A DNA stretch of 63,967 nucleotides, filler included, from Collodictyon triciliatum (lineage: Eukaryota), in NCBI GenBank assembly GCA_043381765.1. It is 10 parts of 10 records of this genome, joined end to end, with 100 filler letters (N's around TTAATTAATTAA, not from the genome) between each part and the next. Parts side by side here need not be neighbours in the genome. Positions count along the whole stretch, not along the records: positions 24,541 to 31,657 come from JBHJMP010004052.1; 9 more parts are not named here. One strand, 5' to 3'. A program made the translations under genes and the position numbers. How positions within the stretch are numbered: the first letter of the stretch is position 1; the number at the start of each line of letters is the position of its first letter. Positions 7,121 through 62,844 of the stretch are shown here, one piece after another. The notes under the pieces were generated by a model. It was not told the DNA's origin, did not search any database, and saw only the letters and a list, made by a program, of their open reading frames with translations.

Positions 7121-7220
7121 NNNNNNNNNNNNNNNNNNNNNNNNNNNNNNNNNNNNNNNNNNNNTTAATTAATTAANNNNNNNNNNNNNNNNNNNNNNNN
7201 NNNNNNNNNNNNNNNNNNNN
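7121..7220. other. Artificial contig spacer (N-run, TTAATTAATTAA, N-run; stops in all six frames). Also at 14339-14438, 24441-24540, 31658-31757, 38905-39004, 46113-46212, 53318-53417, 60595-60694, 62745-62844
   Basis: The same 100-nt pattern occurs nine times, mostly about 7.1-7.2 kb apart, between unrelated sequences. Confidence 0.97.
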
Positions 7221-13942: not shown

Positions 13943-15067
13943 GTAAGGCTGCTTTGCAACCCCACTTTTGCTTGCTTCTCGACCCTTTCTCTGCTGCTCT
14001 TGGCCTCGGCCTCTTTTAACCTTTTCTTTTCTTCTTTTTGACATGTTCTTTATTTTTGATATTTATTTCTGTTTATTAATGAGTCTTTTTCATCGCTGCT
14101 TTTTTATTCCCTCCTGCGTTATAAATATTTTTTTGGGTCGGATATAACACCGCCATAAAATGCTCTCGTGTTATCAACGCAGTGCGCATTTTGATGTAAT
14201 TCAGCATTTACAATGATAATGATAATAATGATAATAATAATAATAATAACTATAATAATAACTATAATAATAACTATAATAATAACTATAATAATAACTA
14301 TACACTTTGAATCGAATAAAGGAAAAAAAAACTATAATNNNNNNNNNNNNNNNNNNNNNNNNNNNNNNNNNNNNNNNNNNNNTTAATTAATTAANNNNNN
14401 NNNNNNNNNNNNNNNNNNNNNNNNNNNNNNNNNNNNNNCTTTGACTTCTCGCCACCAAAGACATACTCGTATGTGATGATTGGGTACTATGTGAGCATCA
14501 CGCTGTGCAACATCATGATGGAGGCCGGGGTCTTTTCATTCCCAAGCCTCAAGTTCAGCACATAGTTATGGAAGGGAGCATCGTGGAGAATAGTGGATGG
14601 GTGATGAGGACTGCATCAAATGATTGGTGGCGCCCGTCACTTCCCGTGAAAAAAAAGAAAAAGAAAAAGAAAAAAAATACAAGAACCAACCAAGATAGAA
14701 AGCAAAAGAACTCGCTTCATCCACAGCTTCGAAACAATAAACAAACAAACAAACAAACAAACAAACAAACAAAAAAAAACGATGAAGATAACGAATAAAT
14801 ATCCAAACAATTCATTAAATAAATGGAGCGAAAAGTCATACAATCCAAATCATACATGAAACGCGCTTCACAAATCATCCATAAGGAAAACAATCGCAAA
14901 AAAAATAAAATAAAATCAAAAAAGCAGTAAAATAATAAAATAAAAGCATGATTGAATGAAAAACAGAAAGAGAAAAAAAAACTCTGATTCTCTACAAGCA
15001 ACCTCCAAACAACGACAGAGTACTCCTTCTTACACACTCTTTTCTTTTACCTGTTTCGCCTTGCAAG

Positions 15068-21553: not shown

Positions 21554-22267
21554 NNNNNNNNNNNNNNNNNNNNNNNNNNNNNNNNNNNNNNNNNNNNNNN
21601 NNNNNNNNNNNNNNNNNNNNNNNNNNNNNNNNNNNNNNNNNNNNNNNNNNNNNNNNNNNNNNNNNNNNNNNNNNNNNNNNNNNNNNNNNNNNNNNNNNNN
21701 NNNNNNNNNNNNNNNNNNNNNNNNNNNNNNNNNNNNNNNNNNNNNNNNNNNNNNNNNNNNNNNNNNNNNNNNNNNNNNNNNNNNNNNNNNNNNNNNNNNN
21801 NNNNNNNNNNNNNNNNNNNNNNNNNNNNNNNNNNNNNNNNNNNNNNNNNNNNNNNNNNNNNNNNNNNNNNNNNNNNNNNNNNNNNNNNNNNNNNNNNNNN
21901 NNNNNNNNNNNNNNNNNNNNNNNNNNNNNNNNNNNNNNNNNNNNNNNNNNNNNNNNNNNNNNNNNNNNNNNNNNNNNNNNNNNNNNNNNNNNNNNNNNNN
22001 NNNNNNNNNNNNNNNNNNNNNNNNNNNNNNNNNNNNNNNNNNNNNNNNNNNNNNNNNNNNNNNNNNNNNNNNNNNNNNNNNNNNNNNNNNNNNNNNNNNN
22101 NNNNNNNNNNNNNAAAAAAACACAAAAAAAAAACACAATAAAAAAACACAATAAAAAAACACAATAAAAAAACACAATAAAAAAACACAATAAAAAACAA
22201 AATAAAAAAACACAATAAAAAACACATAAAACTCAATTTTAATCCCTTATTTCCTCGAAGGGTGAAT

Positions 22268-24341: not shown

Positions 24342-24383
<42 letters not shown>

Positions 24384-24557
24384 CATTATCATTATCATTA
24401 TCATTATCATTATCATTATCATTATCATTATCATTATCATNNNNNNNNNNNNNNNNNNNNNNNNNNNNNNNNNNNNNNNNNNNNTTAATTAATTAANNNN
24501 NNNNNNNNNNNNNNNNNNNNNNNNNNNNNNNNNNNNNNNNAATTTATTTTTTTCAAT

Positions 24558-27038
24558 TTATTTTAAAAGAAAGGATGGTTTGTTTTCAGATTTAAGCGGC
24601 TCGGTTCCTATTTCATTAATCATTTCCACTTCGGCACTGTCGTTATCCTCTTTTTCCTGTGAACTCAATTTTTGGTGTCCAATTATTGCAGGCTTTTTCA
24701 ATTTTTCTTTTTTATACATCGCATCTCTTTGTTTGACGTACTTGCTGAGCATAGGACACACTGTCATTTTTTCGTAAAATGTCCCAATTTTCATTTCAAA
24801 CTTATATTCTGATTGTTTTTTAAACTCAATGTAGTCTTTGCGTATATCAGCCAAATAAACAATTTCTTCATTGGCTGAATCAACTTTTTTATAGTTTGTG
24901 TAAAACCAACTTGTAAAATCATCGGACTCCTGAAAATAAGTTTCTGTAATTAAATGCGACCGACTGCCTTCTTGTAAAAGAAATGATGAATTTTTTATGT
25001 AATCCTGAAATGAGTCAGCCAAAATGTGAAAATACGCAATTTTATATGATTTTAAAAAATCAAAGTCCTTGTATTTAAGATTCACGATACCATACCCTTC
25101 TTTTTCCTCCATCGCATCATACACTTCTTTTTCGATAAACTTGATAGGAAAATGTATCACAAATAGTCTCTGTGTGATTGCCTGCTCGACTACATCAAGT
25201 TTTGGTTTGCTGTTGCACTCTAGTATATAAGTTCCGCAATTTAGGGTGTCTGTTTTTTTTGAGTAAATACCTCTAGCGTTGATGACCGAGCACCCTGTGA
25301 GTAGCTTGAGGGTACTAGTGGCAATCTTTTCGTCTTGGTCTGGTTCTGATGTTGTTATGAGTCGCTTGCCCTCGATATTTGCCAAAGCTTGATTTGTTCC
25401 TTCTTTCAGCTTGGACTGAATACTACTTGGTGACAGCGCATAAAAATAGTTTCCCAGTGCATATTTGTTGAATTCCTGGAAAAGTCCTTTTCCGTTTCGT
25501 CCACTGCCGTGTGCCAGACAGATTTTCTCGACTAGTGTCCCAGTTAGCCCAGTCGAGCAATATTTTAAAAAAAGGTTCAAGTCATAATCCAATGGCAGAA
25601 TTGTTTTAAATATTTCCATTAACTTTATTTTTTTGGCATCTAATTCTGAGTAATCTTCGTAGTTGTATCCACAGGTCTCTGAGATATATTGTTCTGGCTC
25701 AGGTTCAATAAATTTGTTTTTTTCTAAATCAAATATTTTGTTGTTGAAGGCAAATAAATGCGGTTTCTCGTTAAATTTCAGTGTCGAGTTTTCAAGTCTC
25801 TGAAGAACTAGTGTCACAAGAGCCCTGAAATTAAACACACGAGACTTGATTAGTTCCTTCTCCCACGCCTTTTGGTGAACCAAAATCGATTTTGAGTTTT
25901 CGAGGTCTGCTTCTTCGGGCTCGGGTTTGCCTCTTTTTCTTTTGTTTGATTTTTTAGTTGGTTGTTCATTTTGACCAAATGCTTGTTTCATCAAGTCGTA
26001 AATGACATAATAATAATTGTCACTCCAATATTTTGCGAATTGGTAATAGTTTTTTTCAGGTGTGTCAGCCTCCCAATAAACACCATTGTAAACATACAAG
26101 ACTCCGTTACAAGCAGCAAACTCTTTCTTTTTCGCAATCTCAGAGGCAATATTGTACAAATCAAACGGGTCCCAGAAATTAATGTTTACTTTATCTGCTG
26201 TCGTGAGGTCTATTATCTCGGTCATTTCTTTGTGAATAAAACTTATACCCGGTTCATCCACATATTCATTTATCATTTTTATGAATTTTTCGAGACCCAT
26301 AGCTTTGAATCGTTCTTTATGTAAATAAAAACCATCGTGAGCTGGTATATACATGTTTGAATTTTTAACAAATTCCAGGGCTTTGACGAGATAAACAGAC
26401 TCGTAGTGTTGCATTATCAATGCCATTCCCGTATTGATTATTTCATAAGGATTTTCATTTTCTTGTTTGGCCACTTTAAAGAAGCGTTCAAAGTCTGGGA
26501 TACATACAAATTGTTCCTTGAGTCTCTTGGCTTCTTCATAGTATGTTTTTACAAATTCAGAGGCGGTTTCTTCTATAATTTTTTTGTCTTCGGCCCAGGT
26601 AGTGAATCCTCCGCCAAAATTCATAATGTTGAATAGGTCTTTGGCATCTGGTTTTGAGCACTTGTATTTATCCATTATTTCAGACAGACACAAATCTCGA
26701 TTTTCGCAGTAATGCGTCAGTGCTTCACATCTTATGTTATGTTTGTTACACAACTTTAAAAGAATGCTGGGATGGCAATTCGATATATCCACGTCTACAT
26801 AATTTTGATGTAACAGTGTCTGCTTAATCCATCTTGGTAGCGCATTGATATCTGGCTTGCCCCAAAATCGTCCTTCGTTTTTTTGAGTGTACTCGACTTT
26901 TACCACACCATCCGCAACTGACTTTTTTAAAAAAATCAAAGCATTCTTTACACTTGTTTGCTGACTAATAAATCGTTCTGTTTTGCAGAGCTCGGTTATA
27001 TCGTCTTTGCAAATCTGAATTTCAACTTTTAATGACAT
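24558..27038 (-). CDS. TVpol (PolA-like primase-polymerase) fused to D5-like superfamily-3 helicase
   Basis: N-terminal GRFWG..YVDVDISNCHPSIL (motif A), KDLFNIMNFGG (motif B), QHYE, PAHDGFYL (motif C). D5_N-like LYVYNGVYW and FAFNNKIFDL. SF3 Walker A GSGRNGKG, Walker B LITTSEP, motif C ILECN. Confidence 0.85.
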   Translation of the reverse strand: MSLKVEIQICKDDITELCKTERFISQQTSVKNALIFLKKSVADGVVKVEYTQKNEGRFWGKPDINALPRWIKQTLLHQNYVDVDISNCHPSILLKLCNKHNIRCEALTHYCENRDLCLSEIMDKYKCSKPDAKDLFNIMNFGGGFTTWAEDKKIIEETASEFVKTYYEEAKRLKEQFVCIPDFERFFKVAKQENENPYEIINTGMALIMQHYESVYLVKALEFVKNSNMYIPAHDGFYLHKERFKAMGLEKFIKMINEYVDEPGISFIHKEMTEIIDLTTADKVNINFWDPFDLYNIASEIAKKKEFAACNGVLYVYNGVYWEADTPEKNYYQFAKYWSDNYYYVIYDLMKQAFGQNEQPTKKSNKRKRGKPEPEEADLENSKSILVHQKAWEKELIKSRVFNFRALVTLVLQRLENSTLKFNEKPHLFAFNNKIFDLEKNKFIEPEPEQYISETCGYNYEDYSELDAKKIKLMEIFKTILPLDYDLNLFLKYCSTGLTGTLVEKICLAHGSGRNGKGLFQEFNKYALGNYFYALSPSSIQSKLKEGTNQALANIEGKRLITTSEPDQDEKIATSTLKLLTGCSVINARGIYSKKTDTLNCGTYILECNSKPKLDVVEQAITQRLFVIHFPIKFIEKEVYDAMEEKEGYGIVNLKYKDFDFLKSYKIAYFHILADSFQDYIKNSSFLLQEGSRSHLITETYFQESDDFTSWFYTNYKKVDSANEEIVYLADIRKDYIEFKKQSEYKFEMKIGTFYEKMTVCPMLSKYVKQRDAMYKKEKLKKPAIIGHQKLSSQEKEDNDSAEVEMINEIGTEPLKSENKPSFLLK

Positions 27039-27125
27039 CTTCTTACAATCCCTTACAAAAATGTTTTTAAGCCCTTGTTTTGTTGCGTTTCAATTGATAA
27101 AAAACAATGGGGGAGGGGGGAGGCT

Positions 27126-27281
27126 GGCCCATTTTTATAATTTTTAGCCCATAAATCCCAAAAAAAATGGGTAAATCATAAACTCCGCGTAGGCGTTTTT
27201 TTTACATCGTGTAAAAATTCAACATAAGCAAATAAACATTTTCCCCCAATTTTTTTGGGATTTTTGGGCCAAAAATGGGCC
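27126..27281. repeat. Nested imperfect inverted repeat upstream of the primase-helicase (candidate origin or hairpin)
   Basis: GGCCCATTTTT (~27126) pairs with AAAAATGGGCC (27271-27281). GCCCATAAATCCCAAAAAAAATGGG (~27147-27171) pairs with CCCAATTTTTTTGGGATTTTTGGGC (27245-27269) with about 2 mismatches. Confidence 0.7.
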
Positions 27282-27294
27282 AAAAAATGGGAGG

Positions 27295-27477
27295 CTAATC
27301 AAATGAAATTAAAATTTTTTCGTTAAGCAACCTTGATTTAATTTTATATATCCTATTATTCTTTTCTTTTCTATGAAACTTTTCAAGATAGTGTATGTAG
27401 TTTTGTAAATCGTCTAAATCGTCATATATGCCCTGATGGGTCAAAATGTCGTTTATGTATATTAGAAGCTCGTACAT
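27295..27477 (-). CDS. Small viral hypothetical protein (60 aa)
   Basis: ORF fills the space beside the ATPase and has the element's TCTA-N9-ATG upstream motif. Confidence 0.55.
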   Translation of the reverse strand: MYELLIYINDILTHQGIYDDLDDLQNYIHYLEKFHRKEKNNRIYKIKSRLLNEKILISFD

Positions 27478-27498
27478 ACTTTTTTATAGATAATTATA
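27478..27498. promoter_or_regulatory. Candidate bidirectional promoter between the 60-aa ORF and the ATPase (overlapping TATA on +, TCTA on -)
   Basis: TATA 27485-27488 lies 10 nt before ATG 27499; TAGA 27487-27490 (TCTA on minus) lies 9 nt before ATG 27477. Confidence 0.55.
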
Positions 27499-28221
27499 AT
27501 GAATACAAAACGCGTTTCAAACATCAAAATAGCGCCACTGACAAAACCGACGAAAACTCGTGATTTTGGAATTCCGTTTCCGCTGCCGGATATCTCTATC
27601 AGAAATTTTATAATGGGGGTGCTTGGACCGACTGGCTCATCAAAAACAACGTTATACGCAAATTTAATTCGAAAGCACTATTTTGAGATTTTCAACAAAA
27701 TTTATTTCTGCTCACCCAATGTGACGGACGAAGGGAAGGTCTACGACAAGTCCCTGGACTCGATTGATTTTTCAGAGGAGCGTGTTTTTCAAACAGTAAA
27801 CAACGAAGTAGCAGATTATATAAAAGAGGATATAGAGGGTGACGAGGATTTCGAGAAGGAGGATTTCAGAGCGCTCTTGATAATCGATGACTTGGCCAAT
27901 GAGCTGAAAAGCATTCGGCATACCCAGCTGACTAAATTAATTTTAAAGTCGCGGCACTTGCATCTCAGCATAATTATGATTTCGCACAAGTTTACATATT
28001 TCCAGAGAATCCACCGGACAAATTTCACGCATTTTATAATGTACAGAAGCAAATCAAAAAACGAGGTAAAATCCATTTATGAGGACATTATAGATTTGCC
28101 CGAGGAAAAGTTCCAGCAGTTCTATGAATACGCAACAGCGGAAAAATACAATTTTCTTTATGTTGTTTGCAATTCCAACCCGCAACTTTATTTTAAAAAT
28201 TTTGAGGAGGAGTTAACCTAG
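27499..28221 (+). CDS. A32/FtsK-HerA-type genome packaging ATPase
   Basis: Walker A GPTGSSKTT, Walker B LLIIDDL, and the arginine motif KSRHLHLSIIMISHKF..RIHRTN typical of Polinton/virophage/NCLDV packaging ATPases. Confidence 0.9.
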   Translation: MNTKRVSNIKIAPLTKPTKTRDFGIPFPLPDISIRNFIMGVLGPTGSSKTTLYANLIRKHYFEIFNKIYFCSPNVTDEGKVYDKSLDSIDFSEERVFQTVNNEVADYIKEDIEGDEDFEKEDFRALLIIDDLANELKSIRHTQLTKLILKSRHLHLSIIMISHKFTYFQRIHRTNFTHFIMYRSKSKNEVKSIYEDIIDLPEEKFQQFYEYATAEKYNFLYVVCNSNPQLYFKNFEEELT

Positions 28222-28241
28222 ATTTTTTTATAAGTAATGAT

Positions 28242-28652
28242 ATGGTATTCACACGGAGAAGCTTAAGAGGATTCACAAAAGGTCTGGTTAAAGTTGTAAG
28301 GAAGGGAATGAATGTCGGAGAAAAAGTAGTCAACGCAGTAGACAAAGCGACGGGAGGCGGACTCAGGGACCTGGCTCGTACTGCGACGGGTGGATTGTCA
28401 GAACAGGCTCTAAAAGTCTATAATGCTAACAAAGGGTACGTGAAAAAAGGCTTGGATTTGGCAGAAGGCAAACAGGGTGCAACCGTGGCAAAGCTTGTCG
28501 AGGGTAGCAAATACGAGGGACAGTTTAAAAAAGGTGTTGACCAAGTCAATAAATACGCGCCTGTAATTCGCGGAGCTGCACAACGAAACGAATCCCTGGG
28601 AAAAGTCATGAAGTCGTACGACGACAATATCCGAAATAAAATAGGTTATTAA
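28242..28652 (+). CDS. Basic Gly/Ala/Lys-rich viral protein (candidate virion core or membrane-active protein)
   Basis: 136 aa between ATPase and MCP; amphipathic-looking N-terminus RSLRGFTKGLVKVVRKGMNVGEKVV; TATA-N9-ATG upstream. Confidence 0.65.
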   Translation: MVFTRRSLRGFTKGLVKVVRKGMNVGEKVVNAVDKATGGGLRDLARTATGGLSEQALKVYNANKGYVKKGLDLAEGKQGATVAKLVEGSKYEGQFKKGVDQVNKYAPVIRGAAQRNESLGKVMKSYDDNIRNKIGY

Positions 28653-28674
28653 AAATTATTTTCTTTTTTAGAAT

Positions 28675-30447
28675 ATGGATTCACTACCCGAGGAGCTACA
28701 ATTTAGAAATGTATCGTCAAAAAAGAAAACTATTTTGGAAAAACAACAAAGACAAGTTTTGCCCTCAAACGGCACAAATCAGACTGCGAATTTTAGTAGT
28801 GGTCCGCAAATAGTATTTCGAGTTCCCATTGACAATGAATGGAGCATTCAAATGGACAGTGCTCATATTTTATCTGATCTTCAAGTATCTGGAATTCCAG
28901 CTGCTTTTACTGGCGCAACTGGGCAGGCTGGTTTAAAACAAACACAATTAGCTGGTGCTACTGGTGCAATTATTCCCATTTTGGCACCTTGCGAAAGTTA
29001 TGAATCATTTATTTATAGAATTGCCGTTTACTTAAATGGCAGTGAATTGGAGAGAATCGACAACTATTCATATTTGGAAAGTTTTAAACATACGTGGTGC
29101 AATAACCAAAATTGGGTAAACTTGATGAGTGGAAGTATGGGATTAGGACAATCTATATTAGATAAATCCAAACTATTTTTGGTTGGTGCGGAAGGAACCA
29201 GTAGTAACACTGTGCAAATCGGGTTTCCGTTACGATACTTAGGGTTAAACAATATAAAGACGCTATTACCCGCTTATCTACTAGGGCCAAATTCACTGGA
29301 GATTCGTATTTGGATGTCGCCTGCATCTGAATGTTTTACATGTGGTACGTTAGCTGCAGGAGCAACTGCAGCAGGAAGTAGATTAAATTTTACTAATTGG
29401 TCAGGTACCACAGGAAATAATTTAAGTTACACATTAAGTAATATTAGAATGAATATAAACTATATTCAAACGGAGCCATCTTATAACAACGCACTGTCTC
29501 AGTATTTAATAAACAATAATCTACAAATACCTATAGAAACTTATTTCATGACTCAATTTCCTATACCAAAGAATTCTAGTGGGTGGATAACTCAGAATAT
29601 TTCAGTTCAGTACTCAAATATAAATGCTGTGTATCTTATATTTACTCGTAATATCGAACAAGGTGTTTTATCATATTTGGGCACTGATAGACTTCATGCA
29701 ATCGAAGGAATAGCTCAGGCAAGACTTACAGTGAATGGTAAAGTGATGCCATCCGTTCCTATTTTGCTTCAAAACCCAGGATATGTAACTTATCCAGGAA
29801 CTGCTGCCGGTTCACCTGTATCACCAGGTGTAAATATTGGAACTGCTAGCGACCTATTGGCAAGTGGAATTCATGGTCAGGCGTGTTGCCAGCAACCAGA
29901 AGCTCTGAATTATCTAATGAAAGCGCTCGGATACAACACCTCAGCGGAAATGCTTGGTCAGGTGAATTTCCCGGTGGTTGATTCCACCCCTCATAGTTTT
30001 AATGGAAACTATACACTTCAAAAATCAGGAGCAGGTGCATTTTATGCCAGCAACAAAGCCGTTTATAACAATATGTTTCCAGATGCTGGCCAAACTGGCG
30101 GTGTTGTTGGTTTGGCTAATAATAATAACAATCCATTAAATTGTGAAGAGATCTTTTGGAAAACACCAACTCATTTCGCACTTGGGTGGTCAATGACGCG
30201 CTCGGACTACAGTGATGAATTTGAATTGTCTGGTTACAATGCATCTTCAAATTCTGGAATTGTACAGGTGGGTCTACAATTTGCAGGTTCTTGTAAATCT
30301 GGTGTGGCAATTTCAACTGCTGCCGTAAGCCATGATAAAGGAGCAATTTCTCAATTAACCCCACTTACCGATTACACCTGCTGGGTCATCATCGAGCACA
30401 CACGTATTCTTGACGTTGGCAAGGACAATGCCCAAGTTCTTTATTAA
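28675..30447 (+). CDS. Probable major capsid protein (double jelly-roll, PLV-type)
   Basis: 590 aa, beta-rich. SLPEELQF..VLPSNG..QIVFRVP..D and SFIYRIAVYLNGSELERIDNYSYL match the pattern I recall for PLV MCP N-termini. Lies between the packaging ATPase and the penton-like gene. Confidence 0.8.
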   Translation: MDSLPEELQFRNVSSKKKTILEKQQRQVLPSNGTNQTANFSSGPQIVFRVPIDNEWSIQMDSAHILSDLQVSGIPAAFTGATGQAGLKQTQLAGATGAIIPILAPCESYESFIYRIAVYLNGSELERIDNYSYLESFKHTWCNNQNWVNLMSGSMGLGQSILDKSKLFLVGAEGTSSNTVQIGFPLRYLGLNNIKTLLPAYLLGPNSLEIRIWMSPASECFTCGTLAAGATAAGSRLNFTNWSGTTGNNLSYTLSNIRMNINYIQTEPSYNNALSQYLINNNLQIPIETYFMTQFPIPKNSSGWITQNISVQYSNINAVYLIFTRNIEQGVLSYLGTDRLHAIEGIAQARLTVNGKVMPSVPILLQNPGYVTYPGTAAGSPVSPGVNIGTASDLLASGIHGQACCQQPEALNYLMKALGYNTSAEMLGQVNFPVVDSTPHSFNGNYTLQKSGAGAFYASNKAVYNNMFPDAGQTGGVVGLANNNNNPLNCEEIFWKTPTHFALGWSMTRSDYSDEFELSGYNASSNSGIVQVGLQFAGSCKSGVAISTAAVSHDKGAISQLTPLTDYTCWVIIEHTRILDVGKDNAQVLY

Positions 30448-30476
30448 ATAATTGTTTTATAAAAATAATTATTTAA
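30444..30476. terminator. AT-rich palindromic hairpin between convergent MCP and ORF136 stops
   Basis: TTAAATAATTGTTTT-ATA-AAAATAATTATTTAA: 15-bp stem (14 Watson-Crick, 1 G:U on the + transcript), 3-nt loop, overlapping both stop codons. Confidence 0.7.
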
Positions 30477-30879
30477 ATCTTACTAGTTGATTCAAGTATG
30501 GATTGGCAGCGACCCTGTCGCTGGACGACAAAGTCATCCGTGTTGATTGTCTGTAACTTGTTCCAAGTTCTGGTTCATCCGATTCTGATTCTGATTCCGC
30601 TTTTTTTCGTTTCTTCGGAATTTCCCGGGGGTTGGATTTCTTTTTTAGTTGCTCTTTTATCTCAGAGAGTTCACTTTTTAAATTAGAGAATTCATCAGTC
30701 TCTGCGTCTCTCGCCGAATTTCTAACAGATTCCTCGATCATTTGCGATGCTTTTTTCTTGGCCATCTTTTTCTGCCGCATAAGTTCGAGGTTTTTGAGCT
30801 GTTTGGGGGTCAGTGTTCTTTTCTTTTTTTCGGGCACGGCAACAGGAAGTTCAACATCTTCTTCATATTCTTGCTCCAT
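30469..30879 (-). CDS. Charged viral hypothetical protein (136 aa)
   Basis: Acidic N-terminus, KKKRTLTPKQLKNLELMRQKK basic helix, coiled-coil middle; TCTA-N9-ATG upstream. Confidence 0.7.
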   Translation of the reverse strand: MEQEYEEDVELPVAVPEKKKRTLTPKQLKNLELMRQKKMAKKKASQMIEESVRNSARDAETDEFSNLKSELSEIKEQLKKKSNPREIPKKRKKAESESESDEPELGTSYRQSTRMTLSSSDRVAANPYLNQLVRFK

Positions 30880-30912
30880 AATTTGATATAGAAAAAAATT
30901 CTATGGTAATTT
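30880..30912. promoter_or_regulatory. Candidate bidirectional promoter TAGA-AAAAAAT-TCTA between ORF136 (-) and penton (+)
   Basis: TAGA 30889-30892 is 9 nt from ATG 30879 on minus; TCTA 30900-30903 is 9 nt from ATG 30913 on plus. Confidence 0.65.
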
Positions 30913-31657
30913 ATGCAACGCCGACTGCTTAACGAGAGAAATACAAATGAGGCCAACTATCTTTTTATTAATTCGGAATCGAAACGAGTGAGTGGGTCAA
31001 ACAACAATTTCACCTTTGATTTATCAGATTTCCCAGTTATCAAAAACAAGGCATATAATCTATATATTAAAAGTGTATACTACCCCACGACTATACACCA
31101 GATAACAGAGTTGTATCAATACAATCAATTGCGAATTCGAGTATTGAATACAAACACAACTATAAGTACTTTTACAACAATAACAATCAATGAAGGTACA
31201 TATAACACTAGCCAATATGCCCAAGCGGTTGCCCTAGCACTAAATACTTTATTAGCAAGCAATGGACAAGACCAGTATGATATGGGATATGACGATATTC
31301 GCAATCGGTTTTATTTTGAAAGAAAAACAGTTGCGACACCGGCAATAAGAGTTTATATAACATCTAATGATTCATTTAGTCAGTACCAGGGTGAATTTGG
31401 TTTCGGTGGGTCTTATGTAATTGGATGCAATTACAACACAGAATTTGAATTACCTCTGCAAACAATTCCTAAAAAATATCTGCCGAATCCTGGAATTTTA
31501 CAGCCCTACAGTTATTTTTTTATGACTATCCAGGGAATCACAAATTTGAATTTCAACACAGATGTCCCTGAGCGTTTTGATATTGCTTATCGGTGTCCAT
31601 TGAATCTAAGTAATAGTAAATACCAGTATACATTTATTGAAGAAAGCCAAGAAGAAT
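30913..31657 (+). CDS. Probable minor capsid protein (penton, single jelly-roll), 3'-truncated by contig end
   Basis: YLFINSESKRVSGSNNNFTFDL..LYIKSVYYPTTIHQI..NQL..TITINEGTYNTSQYAQAVALALN follows the pattern (INS..R..G...F, xxP.s.y.I, i.i..G.Y...l...l..aln) I recall for PLV/virophage pentons. Confidence 0.75.
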
Positions 31658-32486
31658 NNNNNNNNNNNNNNNNNNNNNNNNNNNNNNNNNNNNNNNNNNN
31701 NTTAATTAATTAANNNNNNNNNNNNNNNNNNNNNNNNNNNNNNNNNNNNNNNNNNNNTTCCCTTTCTCTTCTTTCTCTTCTTTCTCTTCTTTCTCTTCTT
31801 TCTCTTCTTTCTCTTCTTTCTCTTCTTTCTCTTCTTTCTCTTCTTTCTCTTCTTTCTCTTTCTCTTCTTTCTCTTCTTTCTCTTCTTTCTCTTTCTCTTC
31901 TTTCTCTTCTTTCTCTCCTTTCTCTTCTTTCTCTTCTTTCTCTTCTTTCTCTTCTTTCTCTTTCTCTTCTTTCTCTTCTTTCTCTTCTTTCTCTTCTCCT
32001 TCACACAGCACACAACATCTCGCCAGCTTCGGCTTCAAAATTTTTAAGAACACCAACGAGATGCACAGATTAAAAAAAAAATCCCAAGAAAAAAATGAAT
32101 CGTATTAAAAAAAAGAGCGACAGAAGCCCAATCAGCGTAGTGATGCTATATCAGGTATGATTTTTCTTTAATGGGTTCTTTTGATTTTGGCCAGCGGGGT
32201 GGAACGACGCGACCGAAGGGAATAAGACACAGGATTCCGCCTCAACGAAGAAAGAAAGGAAGAAAGAATGGAATGAATGAAGAAGAAGAGGAAATAATCA
32301 GGCTGTAATCCGCCCCATTTCGATTGCACCACTCTGGAAAAATCAACAAGGACGAAAAGATACTTGATGAGAAATCCATGCAATGATTTGTCCGGTCAAC
32401 GATATAATACATATCGATAATCATGTTCTTACCCCCATGCTTGAGCTCAACCGAGAGTGTATCATTTGTCTGTATCAGAGAATATG

Positions 32487-32554
32487 TTAATTGAACGGGC
32501 TTTTTCTCTTATTATGGACCAATATTTTAGCAAGATGACGGATATTCCTGGTAA

Positions 32555-32585
<31 letters not shown>

Positions 32586-32635
32586 TGTATGTATGTATGT
32601 ATGTATGTATGTATGTATGTATGTATGTATGTATG

Positions 32636-32666
<31 letters not shown>

Positions 32667-34279
32667 CCGCATTCACCTAAACCGTTTCTTAACTTTCTTG
32701 CTCGTTCCGTAGACAAGACTTATTGCAAGTCCAAACGACGGTGCGGACAGCGCGTGCAGGCAGAATAGCCAATACTAAGACATATATCGGTATTTATCGC
32801 GTGTTCAACTTTGCATAAGGTTTATATATAAAAATTCAATAATGTTCGATGAGACTGGCAGGTCGTATTTTATTCTTTAATATAATATAATGTATAATGA
32901 TAATGTAAGCTATTGCGCAATTATTCGTATGTTGGAGTATACCTTCGGCTCTTCGGGCTCGGACCAATTCTGAATGCGATTTACCACAGGCCAGAACCAA
33001 CAAGAGACGAACGCAACAATGACTCGCATTAGTCTTTTGGAAAGTTTTCTTCGGAATCGGTTGACGCTGTTGCTGCTATGACCACCTGCCGATTCAATTC
33101 CTTCCTGCATGATATGACGAAATCTATGAGTACATATATGAATGATATAATGGATTGGTATATAATTGTCCCAAAGTACCATCTAGAAAAAGAATGTGCT
33201 TGATATACCTTCACACTATTGACAAATCGGTATGCTGACAAGTAGAGAATAATGTTGATTCCCAAAGAGATGACCATAGGAATGTAAAAGAAGATAAACC
33301 GAGAGGAGTCCTCTGTGTCCTTTATCCAACACCTGCAATGTGTATGATATCGGTTATTTTTGGAATAGAAACTCGGCAATTGTACCAACACATAAGATGT
33401 GAAATTATCACAAAAATAAAAAATCACCTGCCTATAAGCAAATAATGTAAATGAAAAATATATTGCCAAACCAAAGCCCAGCCGGCCCCATTTCATCCCG
33501 AGCATATGTTGCTACAGTACTTGCAATGGGAAATCCCCATCCGAATATATGGAAAAATGGCTCAGCTTTTTCCGTCTAATAATGTTTATGAAACATCGTG
33601 AGCTCGCTATCACGATGGGTAATATATCACGGAAGAGACTCAATTTAATTATTACTATTTTTAATCGCATACTTACTTTTATTCATAATTTCATAGTTAT
33701 CCAAAAAATATATAAAAATAATAGAGAAACCTTGTTTTGTGCGCTGTATATACACACGAAGAGAATCCCAGAAATATTCGTCATCCACATCATTGAAGCC
33801 AAATTGAAAAACTGGATCATCCCCGCTGAAAACAAAGCCGCATCAACAAAGGTGAGTAAAGCAATCATTATATCGAAAGATTAAATGAGGAAATAGAATA
33901 CATCTCCCATAAACTTTTTGCAAATAATAACAATTGTAATAATTGTAATAAGAATCTGAAAATAAACCCAATAATTATGGTAATAGCATTATAACAAAAG
34001 AAATGTAAGATAAAAAGAACCTTGCGCTTGGCATACTCTGTATATTGTTGGGTCGCTCACATCAATTCCATTCTCTCCATAGGACGCATTCATCAGAAAG
34101 GCGACAGACGTGCCAAAGTTGTTGAGCGCAAGGATAAAGACCAGACGCAGGGATATCGAGCGGATATTCTTGAAGCGCAGGTAAGAAAAAATAACCAGTG
34201 TGCAAGCAAAGAGAGACAGCGAACTTGTGCAGTAGACAATAATCCGCAGAGCCTGGACTTGATCTGGAGTGAATCCCAT
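32487..34279 (-). CDS. 7-TM GPCR of the cAMP-receptor-like (cAR/Crl, GCR1-like) family, multi-exon
   Basis: TM1 SSLSLFACTLVIFSYLRFKNIRSISLRLVFILAL, CQAQG-MIQFFNLASMMW, WGFP, CWI, RFIFFYIP, VAFVSCWFWPVVNRIQN. The last exon reads ..RNIRHLAKILVHNKRKSPFN*. Confidence 0.85.
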
Positions 34280-38904: not shown

Positions 38905-39389
38905 NNNNNNNNNNNNNNNNNNNNNNNNNNNNNNNNNNNNNNNNNNNNTTAATTAATTAANNNNNNNNNNNNNNNNNNNNNNNNNNNNNNNNNNNNNNNN
39001 NNNNTTTTTTTTACTTCATTACAACTCTATAGAACCTTCTACGAAGCGGGCAAGAGGTCTGTGTCGGTTTAATTGTCATACAATAGTGATATAAAAGTTG
39101 ATGTAGCTCATTATTTCGACTAAAATATCAATAACATGCACCCAAAATAGGTCTAAATTCAAATTCAAGCCTCCGTTGGAAAAAATTGAGAGATATAATC
39201 GTGGGGAAAAAGAAAATCAAATCTTTATCAACATCAGATCATTCCTTGTTTGTCTAATATATTAACCCATATTCCGATTTAATTTTATTATTTTGCTCTA
39301 TAGCCATTAATCCTGTCATAGCCTCCCTGGATAAAAGGTGTTCTTTTTCTTTCTTTCTAGTTGTTTGTCTAATTTCTGAAATGTTACAG

Positions 39390-42300
39390 ACCAGGCTTCC
39401 ATCGAACTATTCAAGACTTGTTGGGCGATGTTTCAGTCGAAAGAAAAGAATCTGTTCGTGAAAAAGTGGGCAAAGTAATTAAATCCTTCCATGGGTCATC
39501 TCCAGATGCCAAAAAGCTTGCGTCGCAAGAGGGGGAGATTGCAGGCCTAGGTCGCTTGTTGATGTCCATGAACACAAAGAATAATAGCCTTCTTACCTTC
39601 TACACGGCCATAAGAAGGTTGACAGGAAAATATCACTTTTTTTTTTTTAATGATAATGCGTGCATTACTAGCAACTATCGAATCCTAATTTCTATCTTTA
39701 CAGTTATTTTGGAATCAAAAAAAAAAAAAAGAAAGAAAGAAGAAGGCGTAGCCTGTATGCTCACGCAATAAATTAGCCGTCCAATAGAAAGTGATATGCC
39801 AGATCCAAATGAAGCACACGTGGCCATCACCCCGATGATTGCAACCATTCTGCCTCACAGACGAATGGAATATATAGTTTCCATTAACGTCCCTGACTCA
39901 GAGGAAATCAAAGGTGGGCCTAGTAATCAAAAAAGAAAAAAATGGATTTTAGTGTAACTTGCATCCATCATTTTGTTTTCAATGTATTCATGTAATCACT
40001 TTTACACTATTGTTTGATTTAGACGGCGCATTTCGTTGCAATTTGCGAATAGACAGCAATTTGATGTCTGATAAGGTCACTGCGCAATCAAAAAAAAAAT
40101 TCAAAGCATTTATTATTCGAATACATAATATGATATGCTTGTTTTCAATTTGAAAAATTCCACATTAATATCATAAATCCATTTTCAGTCTTATTGTATA
40201 CCACTCGAGGCTGTTCTTCATAAAGCATCCATTAATTTCGACAACACCTCAATATTGGACTTTGGCTACATTCCAATAGGCAAGAGTGAATTCATATGGT
40301 CGCCCAATGAAAAAAATATCAAGCTTAACCAATCAATGCTTTTTTAAACATTCTTATTACACACATCAACGACGTGCACTTTGTTGATGTTTTAACAGGC
40401 CTCTCCGAGTCGTTGACCCGCAAAATTAGAAATAACGGGGACTTAGATATACCCTTTAAATTCCGAAACGATAACATTGGTCTTACTATTTCACCTCATG
40501 AGGGTGTTATACCGAAGAAGGGGACCTTGACCGTAAGGATGAAATATTGTTATAAAAATGGACATCATATGAAATGCTGTTATTTTAGAGTTAAAAGATC
40601 AAATTGTGCAAATTGTATCATTCAAATTTTCTACCTTAGTGTAAATGAAATCCGCTATTTCGAAGCTGACTTACCTAGAAAAGAAAAAAATGTGTCAAAC
40701 TAACTTTGAGAATGAAAATCTCATGAAAAGGTGATTTTCTCGTTCAGGCCATTGTCAAGTGTTCTTCAGAATAAACAGGTTATATTTGAAGCTCTAAACC
40801 CAGACAGAATCGTTCTGCCCTTCACTGGAGGAGGTTGTATAAGTTCACATAAAGATAATTTTTTTATTTTATTCATTGTGGTGCACTTTGTACCAAACAA
40901 TAAGAAAAAATATTATCATTATCATTATCATTATGATTATTGAAAGAAACGACATGGCAAACAATGCAGGAGGTACATCGAAAATGCAATTGAGCAACAA
41001 CGATAGATTTGACTTTGGTCGCTGTTTGATGAGGAAAGACACACTCAAGCATCTTCGAGTTACAAATATTGGAACTGCCTATCTGAAGGTACCTATGCAC
41101 GCCCGTAGTTGAATGTTCAAAACATTCATGATTGATTATTATTTCAATAACCTGCTGTAGTTGTTCCTGTTGTTTTACTATTTGCTTAGAGAATCATCAA
41201 TTAACATGCAACCATTTTGATCGATTTTAGATATTATCAATTGATATTGAAAAGTCAGACGTGTTTTACAGAGGAAATGGATGGCCGATGGCGGGGCTTG
41301 TTATCCAACCAAAATCATTTTTTGATTTACCTTTAGTACTACACCCAAATTCTGAAAGCACTTTAACCGGGAGACTTACCATTCATACAATCGAAAAAAC
41401 TCATATTATAGAACTGCAAGGAACAGGTATTTTCTTTTACATCTAATCGCCTTCAATCATAACTAAAATATATTGTACAATTCAATTTGTACAAACACGA
41501 TTAAAATCAAGCATATGGGAATCAGATGTAATGAGCATAAGATGTTTTTCAAAAAATGTTCGAATCTAATTAAATCGGTGGTTAGGCAGAGAAGCATCTC
41601 TATTGCTGAATCAAAAAACAGTTGTTTTTTCTGATTGTCTTGTTGGAATGACTTATTTTGATAACATAAATTTTTCCAATACTGGAGAAGTGTGTTTTAC
41701 TTTCATACTTTCATACTTTCATACTTTCATACTTTCATACTTNNNNNNNNNNNNNNNNNNNNNNNNNNNNNNNNNNNNNNNNNNNNNNNNNNNNNNNNNN
41801 NNNNNNNNNNNNNNNNNNNNNNNNNNNNNNNNNNNNNNNNNNNNNNNNNNNNNNNNNNTTTTTTGCTTTTTTGCTTTTTTGCTTTTTTGCTTTTTTGCTT
41901 TTTTGCTCTAAGTTTTATATATGCAAATCAATTAATTGTATTCAATTTTTTGGATTGAAATAGTTCACTTATAGGTAATTGCTAAGTATAGTGCATATGA
42001 AATAGGTCACCTTTCCATTAACATTCAGAGTTGAGCCTGAATGTGCGGACATTAGCCTTTCATTGGTTGGTATTGAAATAGCACCGTACACTAGAGTTAC
42101 CCTTCAGGTGACATTTAAGCCATCACAGATATATGACTCGTCGCAAATCAAGGTCATTGTTGAGTCCCCCTTCATTTTGGAGGAGGTAATATCAGTAACT
42201 CTATTTTTCTACCTCTGGAAACATTATAATACAATTTCTATATTCTTTTTTGTATGGAAACAATTGAGCTGAATTAATAGATAATTTCTTAATTTTTTGT

Positions 42301-46112: not shown

Positions 46113-47145
46113 NNNNNNNNNNNNNNNNNNNNNNNNNNNNNNNNNNNNNNNNNNNNTTAATTAATTAANNNNNNNNNNNNNNNNNNNNNNNNNNNNNNNN
46201 NNNNNNNNNNNNAAAAAAAAAAAAAACAACAAAAACAAAAAAAAACAAAACAAAAAAACAAAAAAACAAAAAAACAAAAAAACAAAAAAACAAAAAAAAA
46301 ACGAAAACTAAAAGCTAAAAGCTAAAAATGAAATAATTAATGAACCAGGTCAGACAAGTTGGAGTAGATATTAAATAGAGCAACAGGGATAAGTCTTTGG
46401 AAGCTCATAGGTCTGTGGTGATGGAGTGCGGCAGGAGGAGCTGTGCGGTTTATTTCTGCCTTTTGGCAAACTCTTTTGCCATACTCTTGATCACCCTCTT
46501 TCGTTCCATTCAAAATAGCAAATCCAAAAGGGATTAACGTCACTATATATTTCTGGAATTTATAATAACTGTCTTTCATAAACCTATTACCCAGCCACCA
46601 CCGATTAATGACCAAAGGATCAAAACGCAATCACTAGCACCTACTACGAAAGTGGGAATGAGGCAGAAGAGGAACACATCCTGCCGTTTGCATGACTCAG
46701 TTGCGCTAGAAGAAAATAAACATAAGCGGGGGATTGCAAAAACACGAAAAGAGGCCGGATTTTCTATATGCGGAATGTATATATAAACGTTATTTATATT
46801 GATAATATGAATATGGTGCACTACAAGAGCGGAAAATACTATATTTAATACAAATGAAACAATAAAATAAATAATTTTTATCTGGAATATATCCAGGTAC
46901 CGATTTGTGCATTTGAATGAGAAAATCAGAAGGCTTGTTGTATAGAGCATTGGGAGGGATGATGGCCGTTCAGCCTCCGCGCATCGCCCAGACGCTTCTT
47001 TTCCATCCAGCGGTAAAGCCGTGTGGCAACATGCAATAAGAGCAAAGTAAAAGGCCAGAGCCTCCTTAGGGTTTGCTTCGGTATATTTTTTTTTTTCACA
47101 TTTTAAAACAGCACTACATTTCTACCTTCGAGCGAGTTGCGAGAG

Positions 47146-53317: not shown

Positions 53318-53417
53318 NNNNNNNNNNNNNNNNNNNNNNNNNNNNNNNNNNNNNNNNNNNNTTAATTAATTAANNNNNNNNNNNNNNNNNNNNNNNNNNN
53401 NNNNNNNNNNNNNNNNN

Positions 53418-60411: not shown

Positions 60412-60740
60412 CTATTAGAGGTCAAAATAAAGAATGTTACCATTCATATACTGTGCATCTAATACGAATGGTTCATGGCAATCGCAATATATGTAACTCA
60501 CCTAAATAACACATGTCCTATTGATGTAAGATTTTGAATATAGGATTAATATTTTGAAGAAAATAGACTTATTAACGATGTATAATCATGGAAANNNNNN
60601 NNNNNNNNNNNNNNNNNNNNNNNNNNNNNNNNNNNNNNTTAATTAATTAANNNNNNNNNNNNNNNNNNNNNNNNNNNNNNNNNNNNNNNNNNNNAAAACT
60701 ATCCAAAAAATTCAAATAAAAACCCCTTCCCAACCCAAAA

Positions 60741-62643: not shown

Positions 62644-62844
62644 TGTGTAAAAATTGCAAATGTGTACAGTTTGTTTCATTTCAGTTTAAGAATAGAGGAA
62701 AAGGAAAAAAAAAAAAAGAAGAATGAAATAAGATGTAAGAAGACNNNNNNNNNNNNNNNNNNNNNNNNNNNNNNNNNNNNNNNNNNNNTTAATTAATTAA
62801 NNNNNNNNNNNNNNNNNNNNNNNNNNNNNNNNNNNNNNNNNNNN

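Follow-up and report, generated by a model that had tools for sequence, protein, structure and literature searches.

A hairpin on the convergent stop codons of a virophage-like capsid gene, probably a transcript-end signal of the giant-virus kind

An A/T-rich hairpin was found on the stop codons of two convergent genes, one encoding a major capsid protein and the other a small Lys/Glu-rich protein, in a contig of a small virophage-like or polinton-like virus of a freshwater lineage. The structure exists, exceeds what chance provides and sits on the stops, and relatives retain a hairpin at this junction despite turnover of the sequence. A genuine transcript-end signal of the giant-virus/virophage kind is therefore probable. 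More specifically, the hairpin could well be a 3'-end signal of the capsid mRNA that is partly used by the opposing gene and is processed by the hairpin-cleaving and polyadenylating enzymes of a helper giant virus, a reading to which we attach moderate confidence.

The viral contig, its capsid gene and the hairpin

The window (the whole stretch of DNA that was analyzed, 63,967 bases) is a chain of separate contigs rather than continuous DNA. Joints between contigs are artificial linkers of the form N44-TTAATTAATTAA-N44, plus two N-only runs. The contigs adjoining the viral contig are eukaryotic, with genes for Ras, a plant-type O-methyltransferase, a PPR protein and an RRM protein. Since the viral contig ends in or beside viral genes on both sides and its joints are artificial, the window provides no evidence of integration. 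The features of the viral contig are listed below.

24541..31657 (7,117 bases), no strand: whole viral contig, with an N44-TTAATTAATTAA-N44 linker at each side
24558..27038, minus strand: D5-like primase-helicase gene, 826 aa (Pfam D5_N and DUF5906; PHROG primases, E down to 8e-33)
27499..28221, plus strand: A32-type packaging ATPase gene, with a T7 run and no hairpin after it
28242..28652, plus strand: conserved upstream ORF of 136 aa, directly 5' of the capsid gene, with no hairpin after it
28653..28664, plus strand: promoter-like motif AAATTATTTTCT, 11 nt before the capsid-gene ATG, recurring before the capsid genes of relatives
28675..30447, plus strand: major capsid protein gene, 590 aa, double jelly-roll, with its stop (30445-30447) inside the 5' arm of the hairpin
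30444..30476, no strand: A/T-rich hairpin/palindrome, with arms at 30444-30458 and 30462-30476 and the loop at 30459-30461
30469..30879, minus strand: convergent (opposing) gene for a 136-aa Lys/Glu-rich protein, with its stop (30469-30471) inside the 3' arm of the hairpin
30913..31657, plus strand: ORF cut by the contig end, with homologues of 291-330 aa in relatives

The hairpin stem consists of 14 Watson-Crick pairs and one G·T pair (30454/30466), closed by the loop ATA. It starts 1 nt before the capsid stop, contains no G-C pairs, is not followed by a T tract, and takes in the 21-nt gap between the genes, both stop codons and 5 coding bases of the opposing ORF. The first-pass annotation had described a 15-bp stem with an ATA loop that exactly spans the gap between the two stops. 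The letters, positions and loop of this description were reproduced, with the 15 pairs being 14 Watson-Crick pairs and the G·T; the gap is covered as claimed, but the hairpin does not span the gap alone, since both stops are also engulfed.

The pair at 30454/30466 is a G·U in the RNA of the plus (capsid-sense) strand and an A·C mismatch in the RNA of the minus strand. When a 61-nt window was folded as RNA, the plus strand yielded -9.3 kcal/mol (z -3.3, with 1 of 200 shuffles as good) and the minus strand -5.4 kcal/mol (z -0.76, with 42 of 200 shuffles as good). Folding energies of the bare 33-mer as RNA were -8.1 kcal/mol (plus) and -3.8 kcal/mol (minus). Because the minus-strand stem is interrupted by the mismatch and is no better than shuffles, the two-way 3'-end signal that had been proposed for this palindrome is weak, and its two-way use doubtful, in the window.

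By its predicted fold, the 590-aa product is a capsid protein of the double-jelly-roll type, in agreement with the MCP label given at the outset. Its AlphaFold model (mean pLDDT 68.5) was matched by Foldseek to the double-jelly-roll capsids of iridovirus, PBCV-1, mavirus and Sputnik with E-values of 3e-14 to 3e-11 and probability 1.00, and its ESM Atlas neighbours were capsid clusters of Preplasmiviricota and Nucleocytoviricota. The protein had no Pfam match, a profile search of PDB sequences gave no meaningful match, and tblastn against a phage collection returned 0 matches. The pair of a double-jelly-roll capsid protein and an A32-type packaging ATPase, a virophage trait, is present on the viral contig. 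Neither a cysteine protease nor a penton protein was detected by Pfam in the window or in 33 ORFs of relatives, the contig being incomplete and several ORFs being without a family. The opposing 136-aa ORF is a real conserved gene, aligning with the ORF at the same position in seven other loci (8 loci in all); its product carries an N-terminal basic motif, ME..K-KRTLT.KQLKNLE.MR.KK, and a C-terminal motif, NPYL.QLVR.

Chance expectation and conservation of the junction

The hairpin at 30444-30476 is the longest in the whole 64-kb window, N linkers and homopolymers aside. To estimate how often such stems arise in shuffled sequence, as proposed with the first-pass annotation, the 7.1-kb viral contig was block-shuffled 300 times (150 with 40-nt blocks and 150 with 100-nt blocks); none of the shuffled contigs reached 14 pairs, the maximum being 13. 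Dinucleotide shuffling of the 68-nt junction window (82% A+T) gave p=0.002. A chance origin of the hairpin is unlikely by both estimates.

Homologues of the capsid protein numbered 26, all of them metagenomic and 74-32% identical. The DNA of relatives was compared as loci L001-L019, with the window locus designated W. Scans of IMG/VR with two capsid alignments (A1, A2) and an ATPase alignment (A5) returned only one contig, which was already known. The order of small ORF, capsid gene, convergent ORF and plus-strand ORF is common to W, L002, L003, L005, L006, L009, L010 and L011, and L017 has the same convergent junction of capsid gene and opposing ORF. Thus, the junction is convergent in all nine distinct usable loci (W and eight relatives).

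Locus set for the junction test. L004 matches L003 over the compared region, and the contig of L009 recurs as L001, L016 and L019; L001 sits in a giant-virus bin. L013 (capsid gene followed by terminal tandem repeats), L018 (frame broken where the contig ends) and L007, L008, L012, L014 and L015 (capsid 3' end absent) were left out of the test. Capsid homologues P0003, P0010 and P0013-P0015, on contigs of 12-25 kb, lie outside the locus set compared. A junction palindrome was scored at 12 or more Watson-Crick pairs, with one mismatch allowed and a loop of 3-10.

A palindrome of 12-15 Watson-Crick pairs was found between or on both stops in seven of the nine loci. Dinucleotide-shuffle p for the junction hairpin was 0.002 for W, 0.004 for L002, 0.0185 for L003, 0.0075 for L005, 0.001 for L010, 0.003 for L011 and 0.0005 for L017. 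The L006 junction had only 10 Watson-Crick pairs (p=0.12); when G·U was allowed, the capsid-sense strand alone formed a 15-pair hairpin, with 3 G·U pairs (p=0.0095), against 10 pairs for the opposite strand. No hairpin was detected at the L009 junction (p=0.66). The combined junction p was 6e-9, a value that overstates independence in that the four closest loci share ancestry. Had the hairpin been lost from this junction in related elements, the proposal made in the first-pass annotation would have fallen; instead, at least 12 pairs are present in seven of nine loci and the eighth has a plus-strand RNA hairpin.

The hairpin is kept at the same junction while its sequence changes. At least three dissimilar hairpin sequences were distinguished (the W/L002/L003/L005 group, the L010/L017 group and L011), and the junction hairpin recurs between lineages with capsid proteins only 33-36% identical. 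Measured from the end of the stop codon, the start of the hairpin in relatives ranges from 2 nt upstream to 14 nt downstream. The stems of L003 and L005 open with the capsid stop TAA and close with the complement of the opposing stop; the stem of L002 combines the homologous 3' arm with another 5' arm, located further downstream. The four alignable junctions (alignment A4) differ by indels and by this shifted L002 arm, so that counting of pairs is not meaningful among them. The junction spacers are 82-91% A+T, and folding energy showed no consistent bias of plus over minus strand across the loci.

Closer comparison was provided by contigs of approximately 95% identity in public runs X1, X2 and X5. 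These contigs preserve both hairpin arms, and within the 33 nt they depart from W solely by two extra bases (AA) inserted behind 30460, a loop position. Five third-position changes fall in the final 35 bases of the capsid gene, and the opposing ORF is without 36 bases (30505-30540). No substitutions were found at 30430-30504, coding positions included, a comparison too shallow for compensatory change. A contig of run X4 covers 30338-30488 with one difference. The palindrome alone was also matched by unrelated A/T-rich metagenome contigs (records 9 and 12).

Gene ends across the family and known hairpin systems

When the ends of ORFs in all loci were surveyed, hairpins of at least 12 pairs were present in 22% of 74 3' windows (with the capsid junction counted twice), compared to 3% of 65 5' windows, and were rarer still in coding windows (0.4% of 278) and shuffles (0.5%). 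The 16 positive 3' windows comprise twelve that represent six capsid junctions, each viewed from its two genes, and four that lie behind L006 6482-6919, L009 610-1071, L009 9974-10357 and L010 3746-5752. Similarly, an RNA z of -2 or below was found in 19% of 77 3' windows versus 1% of 68 5' and 4% of 69 coding windows (Mann-Whitney on RNA z, p=0.013 for 3' versus 5' and p=0.033 for 3' versus coding). The hairpin signal is thus specific to 3' ends yet far from universal in the virus family. In the window, two of the four judgeable gene ends, those of the ATPase gene and the upstream ORF, are without a hairpin and are followed by short spacers; the primase-helicase gene ends 17 nt from the contig end, and a 3' signal there therefore cannot be judged.

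As in a giant-virus-type polyadenylation signal, the hairpin lies at or just after the stop codon, and its structure is conserved without its sequence among the nine loci. The high prevalence that a general hairpin rule entails was not found: about four-fifths of the 3' ends in the family are without a long or stable hairpin. The rule cited in the first-pass annotation thus does not extend to the family at large, and the claim is therefore that the element works like the rule, or as a reduced variant of it, rather than as a textbook member. Matches to the mimivirus early promoter AAAATTGA (with at most 1 mismatch) were not enriched in the window (201 versus 213 expected), and no exact AAAATTGA was found there in a viral promoter position. 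Rfam returned 0 matches on the viral contig.

At tail-to-tail genes, the mimivirus hairpin signal can be used on both strands. The primary paper on the mimivirus hairpin rule is reportedly that of Byrne et al. from 2009. The hairpin described here resembles the rule of Mimivirus and Megavirus in being an A/T-rich palindrome directly after a stop codon, with structure kept and sequence not. Unlike in those viruses, such hairpins occur chiefly behind the capsid gene, and at roughly one-fifth of gene ends rather than after most genes, and the carrier is a small virus of 61-65% A+T overall, with no linked RNase III-like enzyme or poly(A) polymerase. Excerpts of Priet et al. (2015, PMC4402537) describe the mimivirus polyadenylation signal as a hairpin-forming palindrome of non-conserved sequence, inside which the RNase III-like R343 cleaves before the viral poly(A) polymerase adds a tail; they also cover an in vitro assay of a recombinant enzyme of this type on an R418 substrate. 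This mechanism of cleavage and polyadenylation has been shown for mimivirus and inferred for Sputnik.

The Sputnik virophage carries hairpin signals after 16 genes, according to excerpts of PMC6723459. The carrier virus resembles Sputnik as a small double-jelly-roll virus with an A32 ATPase, a D5-type helicase and a 3' hairpin of the helper's kind. It differs in that the capsid similarity is by fold and not by sequence, in that no protease was found by Pfam, and in that hairpin coverage of genes is far lower, as scored with a detector uncalibrated on a known virophage.

Partial or wider use of such signals has precedents. Excerpts of the respective papers describe terminator hairpins together with late promoters in transpovirons (PMC7031253), count hairpin termination among the features of the family Mimiviridae (PMC6163669), infer it for Bodo saltans virus (PMC5871332), and state that the hairpin rule is obeyed partly by Marseilleviridae and also by Pithovirus (PMC5413956, PMC4402537). 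Transpovirons are dependants that copy the hairpin signal of their helper, as is proposed here, and Marseilleviridae, Pithovirus and Bodo saltans virus illustrate partial obedience to the rule and a distribution of the signal beyond Mimiviridae. By contrast to the window, these cases come with transcript mapping or a linked RNase III gene. A full-text search of main texts returned no report of such hairpins for polinton-like viruses or metagenomic virophages, and the excerpts of the PgVV-14T preprint discuss promoters only.

The hairpin is also comparable to bacterial bidirectional intrinsic terminators, in which one palindrome between convergent stops can serve both strands. A bacterial intrinsic terminator was ruled out, as the stem lacks G-C pairs, a T tract does not follow it, and a terminator scan raised no flag.

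Proposed mechanism and alternative readings

In the mechanism we propose, the polymerase would pass the stop codon and the nascent A/U-rich RNA would fold into a 15-pair hairpin containing the stop. An RNase III-like enzyme of the helper giant virus would nick within the hairpin, and the viral poly(A) polymerase would then add the tail. As the DNA is near-palindromic, a transcript of the minus strand could form a mirror hairpin, and the convergent 136-aa gene probably uses the same palindrome, less efficiently. As neither the ATPase gene nor the upstream 136-aa ORF is followed by its own hairpin, both may share the end of the capsid gene as 3'-coterminal transcripts. We infer that the element would act in RNA, with cleavage and polyadenylation at the hairpin by enzymes supplied by a giant virus; the G·U pairs of W and L006 favour action in the RNA of the capsid-sense strand.

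A more restricted version is put forward only tentatively. By this version, the hairpin rule is reduced in this uncultured freshwater lineage, such that a near-palindrome on convergent stops would close two opposed late units while most other genes have no hairpin. One unit would comprise the ATPase gene, small ORF and capsid gene as 3'-coterminal mRNAs, and the opposite strand would supply the second, for the basic 136-aa protein. If this version is true, the junction hairpin would be a sequence-only marker by which helper-dependent polinton-like viruses could be told from autonomous ones, and it would point to helpers with a pair of RNase III-like enzyme and poly(A) polymerase.

It is rather unlikely, in our estimation, that the hairpin is a functional RNA element of transcript ends that is independent of giant-virus enzymes. 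Such an element could be a 3' stem-loop that protects the abundant capsid mRNA from exonucleases, or a barrier to convergent polymerases (host nuclear or other) that prevents read-through and double-stranded RNA. The clustering of long hairpins at the capsid junction and their absence after most genes would fit a gene- or junction-specific role better, and the junction is convergent in all nine loci. A host-type signal is also conceivable, in that W, L002, L003 and L005 have an ATTAAA that shares bases with the capsid stop, and AATAAA is present on the minus strand at 30439-30444; however, AATAAA/ATTAAA is not clearly enriched at 3' ends (41% of 74 3' windows versus 37% of 65 5' windows and 34% of shuffles). 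Hairpins moreover follow some tandem, non-convergent genes (e.g., L006 6482-6919, L009 610-1071 and L010 3746-5752), and A/U-only stems of about -8 kcal/mol would be weak roadblocks.

Quite improbable is a palindrome that functions at the level of DNA, as a cruciform or protein site in replication, recombination or packaging, and that lies at the junction merely as free space. The sequence differs between lineages, which speaks against a specific protein site; the site is internal and not terminal, enrichment follows stop codons, and the stems of W and L006 need G·T, a pair that in RNA holds on just one of the strands. This reading nevertheless draws on the finding that most copies are true DNA palindromes, on folds of the bare 33-mer with DNA parameters (-7.1 and -5.9 kcal/mol for the two strands) and on precedent, as excerpts of a preprint (bioRxiv 10.64898/2026.07.28.741278) report that endogenous virophages and PLVs have terminal palindromes for which a part in replication is proposed.

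Least probable, and already disfavoured, is a functionless by-product of slippage or template switching in an A/T-rich, low-complexity spacer: the A+T content of the spacers, the almost purely A/T stems, the lack of a hairpin in L009 and the matches of unrelated A/T-rich contigs to the palindrome alone would be in keeping with it, but shuffles that preserve local composition fail to yield the hairpin, equally A/T-rich 5' spacers rarely have such stems, and the hairpin recurs at the same junction in lineages of such low capsid identity.

The capsid-gene hairpin stands at present as a well-supported, unsurprising case of a known principle. To our knowledge, dependence on giant viruses has not been established for most polinton-like viruses and metagenomic virophages. 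Should the hairpin be confirmed as a poly(A) site, it would provide sequence-level evidence that giant-virus machinery transcribes this freshwater lineage, would add a further carrier of the hairpin signal to Sputnik and transpovirons, and would supply a simple feature for the screening of metagenomes.

Upstream of genes, a recurrent motif was observed. The letters TCTA are, we assume, those of the CroV/mavirus late promoter motif. A TTTTCT(A/T) motif (TCTA/TTTTCT-type) recurs 10-25 nt before start codons; it would be compatible with a giant-virus late-type promoter, and it recalls the late promoter described for CroV/mavirus in excerpts of PMC6723459.

Modules of the virus and its relatives

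Comparison of the viral contig of the window with relatives recovered as metagenomic loci by their capsid proteins revealed that the replication and accessory modules vary, and that what stays constant is the capsid module, junction hairpin included. The window encodes a D5 primase-helicase, and two of the relatives carry the following:

L006, 3-3888, protein-primed DNA polymerase B and rve integrase
L009, 610-1818, GIY-YIG endonuclease, ThyX and D5 helicase

In a further locus, L013, tandem repeats of about 32 nt extend from just past the capsid stop codon to the contig end (4829-5139) and may represent terminal repeats of the genome. Loci L017 and L018 were found placed in a MAG labelled Bacteroidetes, and L001/L009 (one contig) in a bin labelled giant-virus MAG. 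These placements are probably binning artefacts, although L001/L009 could have been binned there because a giant virus was present alongside it.

Sequences flanking the viral genes

The motif AAATTATTTTCT was detected at 28653-28664, approximately 11 nt upstream of the capsid-gene start, and is conserved, recurring upstream of the capsid gene in five of the relatives (L002, L003, L005, L010 and L013). TTTTCTA/TTTCTA variants were found 10-25 nt upstream of many other genes in the virus family. Together, the motif and its variants are a candidate late-type promoter.

A run of seven T residues lies immediately 3' of the ATPase stop codon (TAGATTTTTTTAT, window 28222-28232) and is kept in close relatives, at the equivalent sites of L002 and L014. 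This run could be a piece of the promoter of the next gene. Linear T-run termination signals are used by some large DNA viruses, and the run could alternatively be a signal of this type.

The D5 helicase and ATPase genes are separated by the following:

27039-27498, divergent spacer

Within it lies a G-rich run, at about 27110-27124. The spacer also contains a 32-nt inverted repeat composed of GGGCC/AAAAAT units (27140-27171 / 27245-27276; 91% complementary), and could serve as a regulatory region or origin.

Opposing ORF and make-up of the window

A 36-nt in-frame stretch of the 136-aa ORF that opposes the capsid gene (30505-30540) was missing from the approximately 95% identical contigs of three public sequencing runs (X1, X2 and X5), and this segment matches an insertion that only the window sequence carries when the proteins of the ORF are aligned.

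The window is a pseudomolecule, in which contigs are linked by artificial spacers. The viral contig (24541-31657) has no host-DNA junction in the window, and thus its genomic neighbourhood and integration cannot be inferred. The eukaryotic pieces carry microsatellites, (ATTATC)n, (GTAT)n and (TCTTCTTTC)n, at contig ends, which likely caused the assembly breaks.

Landmarks of the window
7121-7220, 14339-14438, 24441-24540, 31658-31757, 38905-39004, 46113-46212, 53318-53417, 60595-60694 and 62745-62844, artificial linkers (N44-TTAATTAATTAA-N44)
21554-22113 and 41743-41858, runs of N only
24343-24440, 32551-32670 and 31760-31990, microsatellites at eukaryotic contig ends
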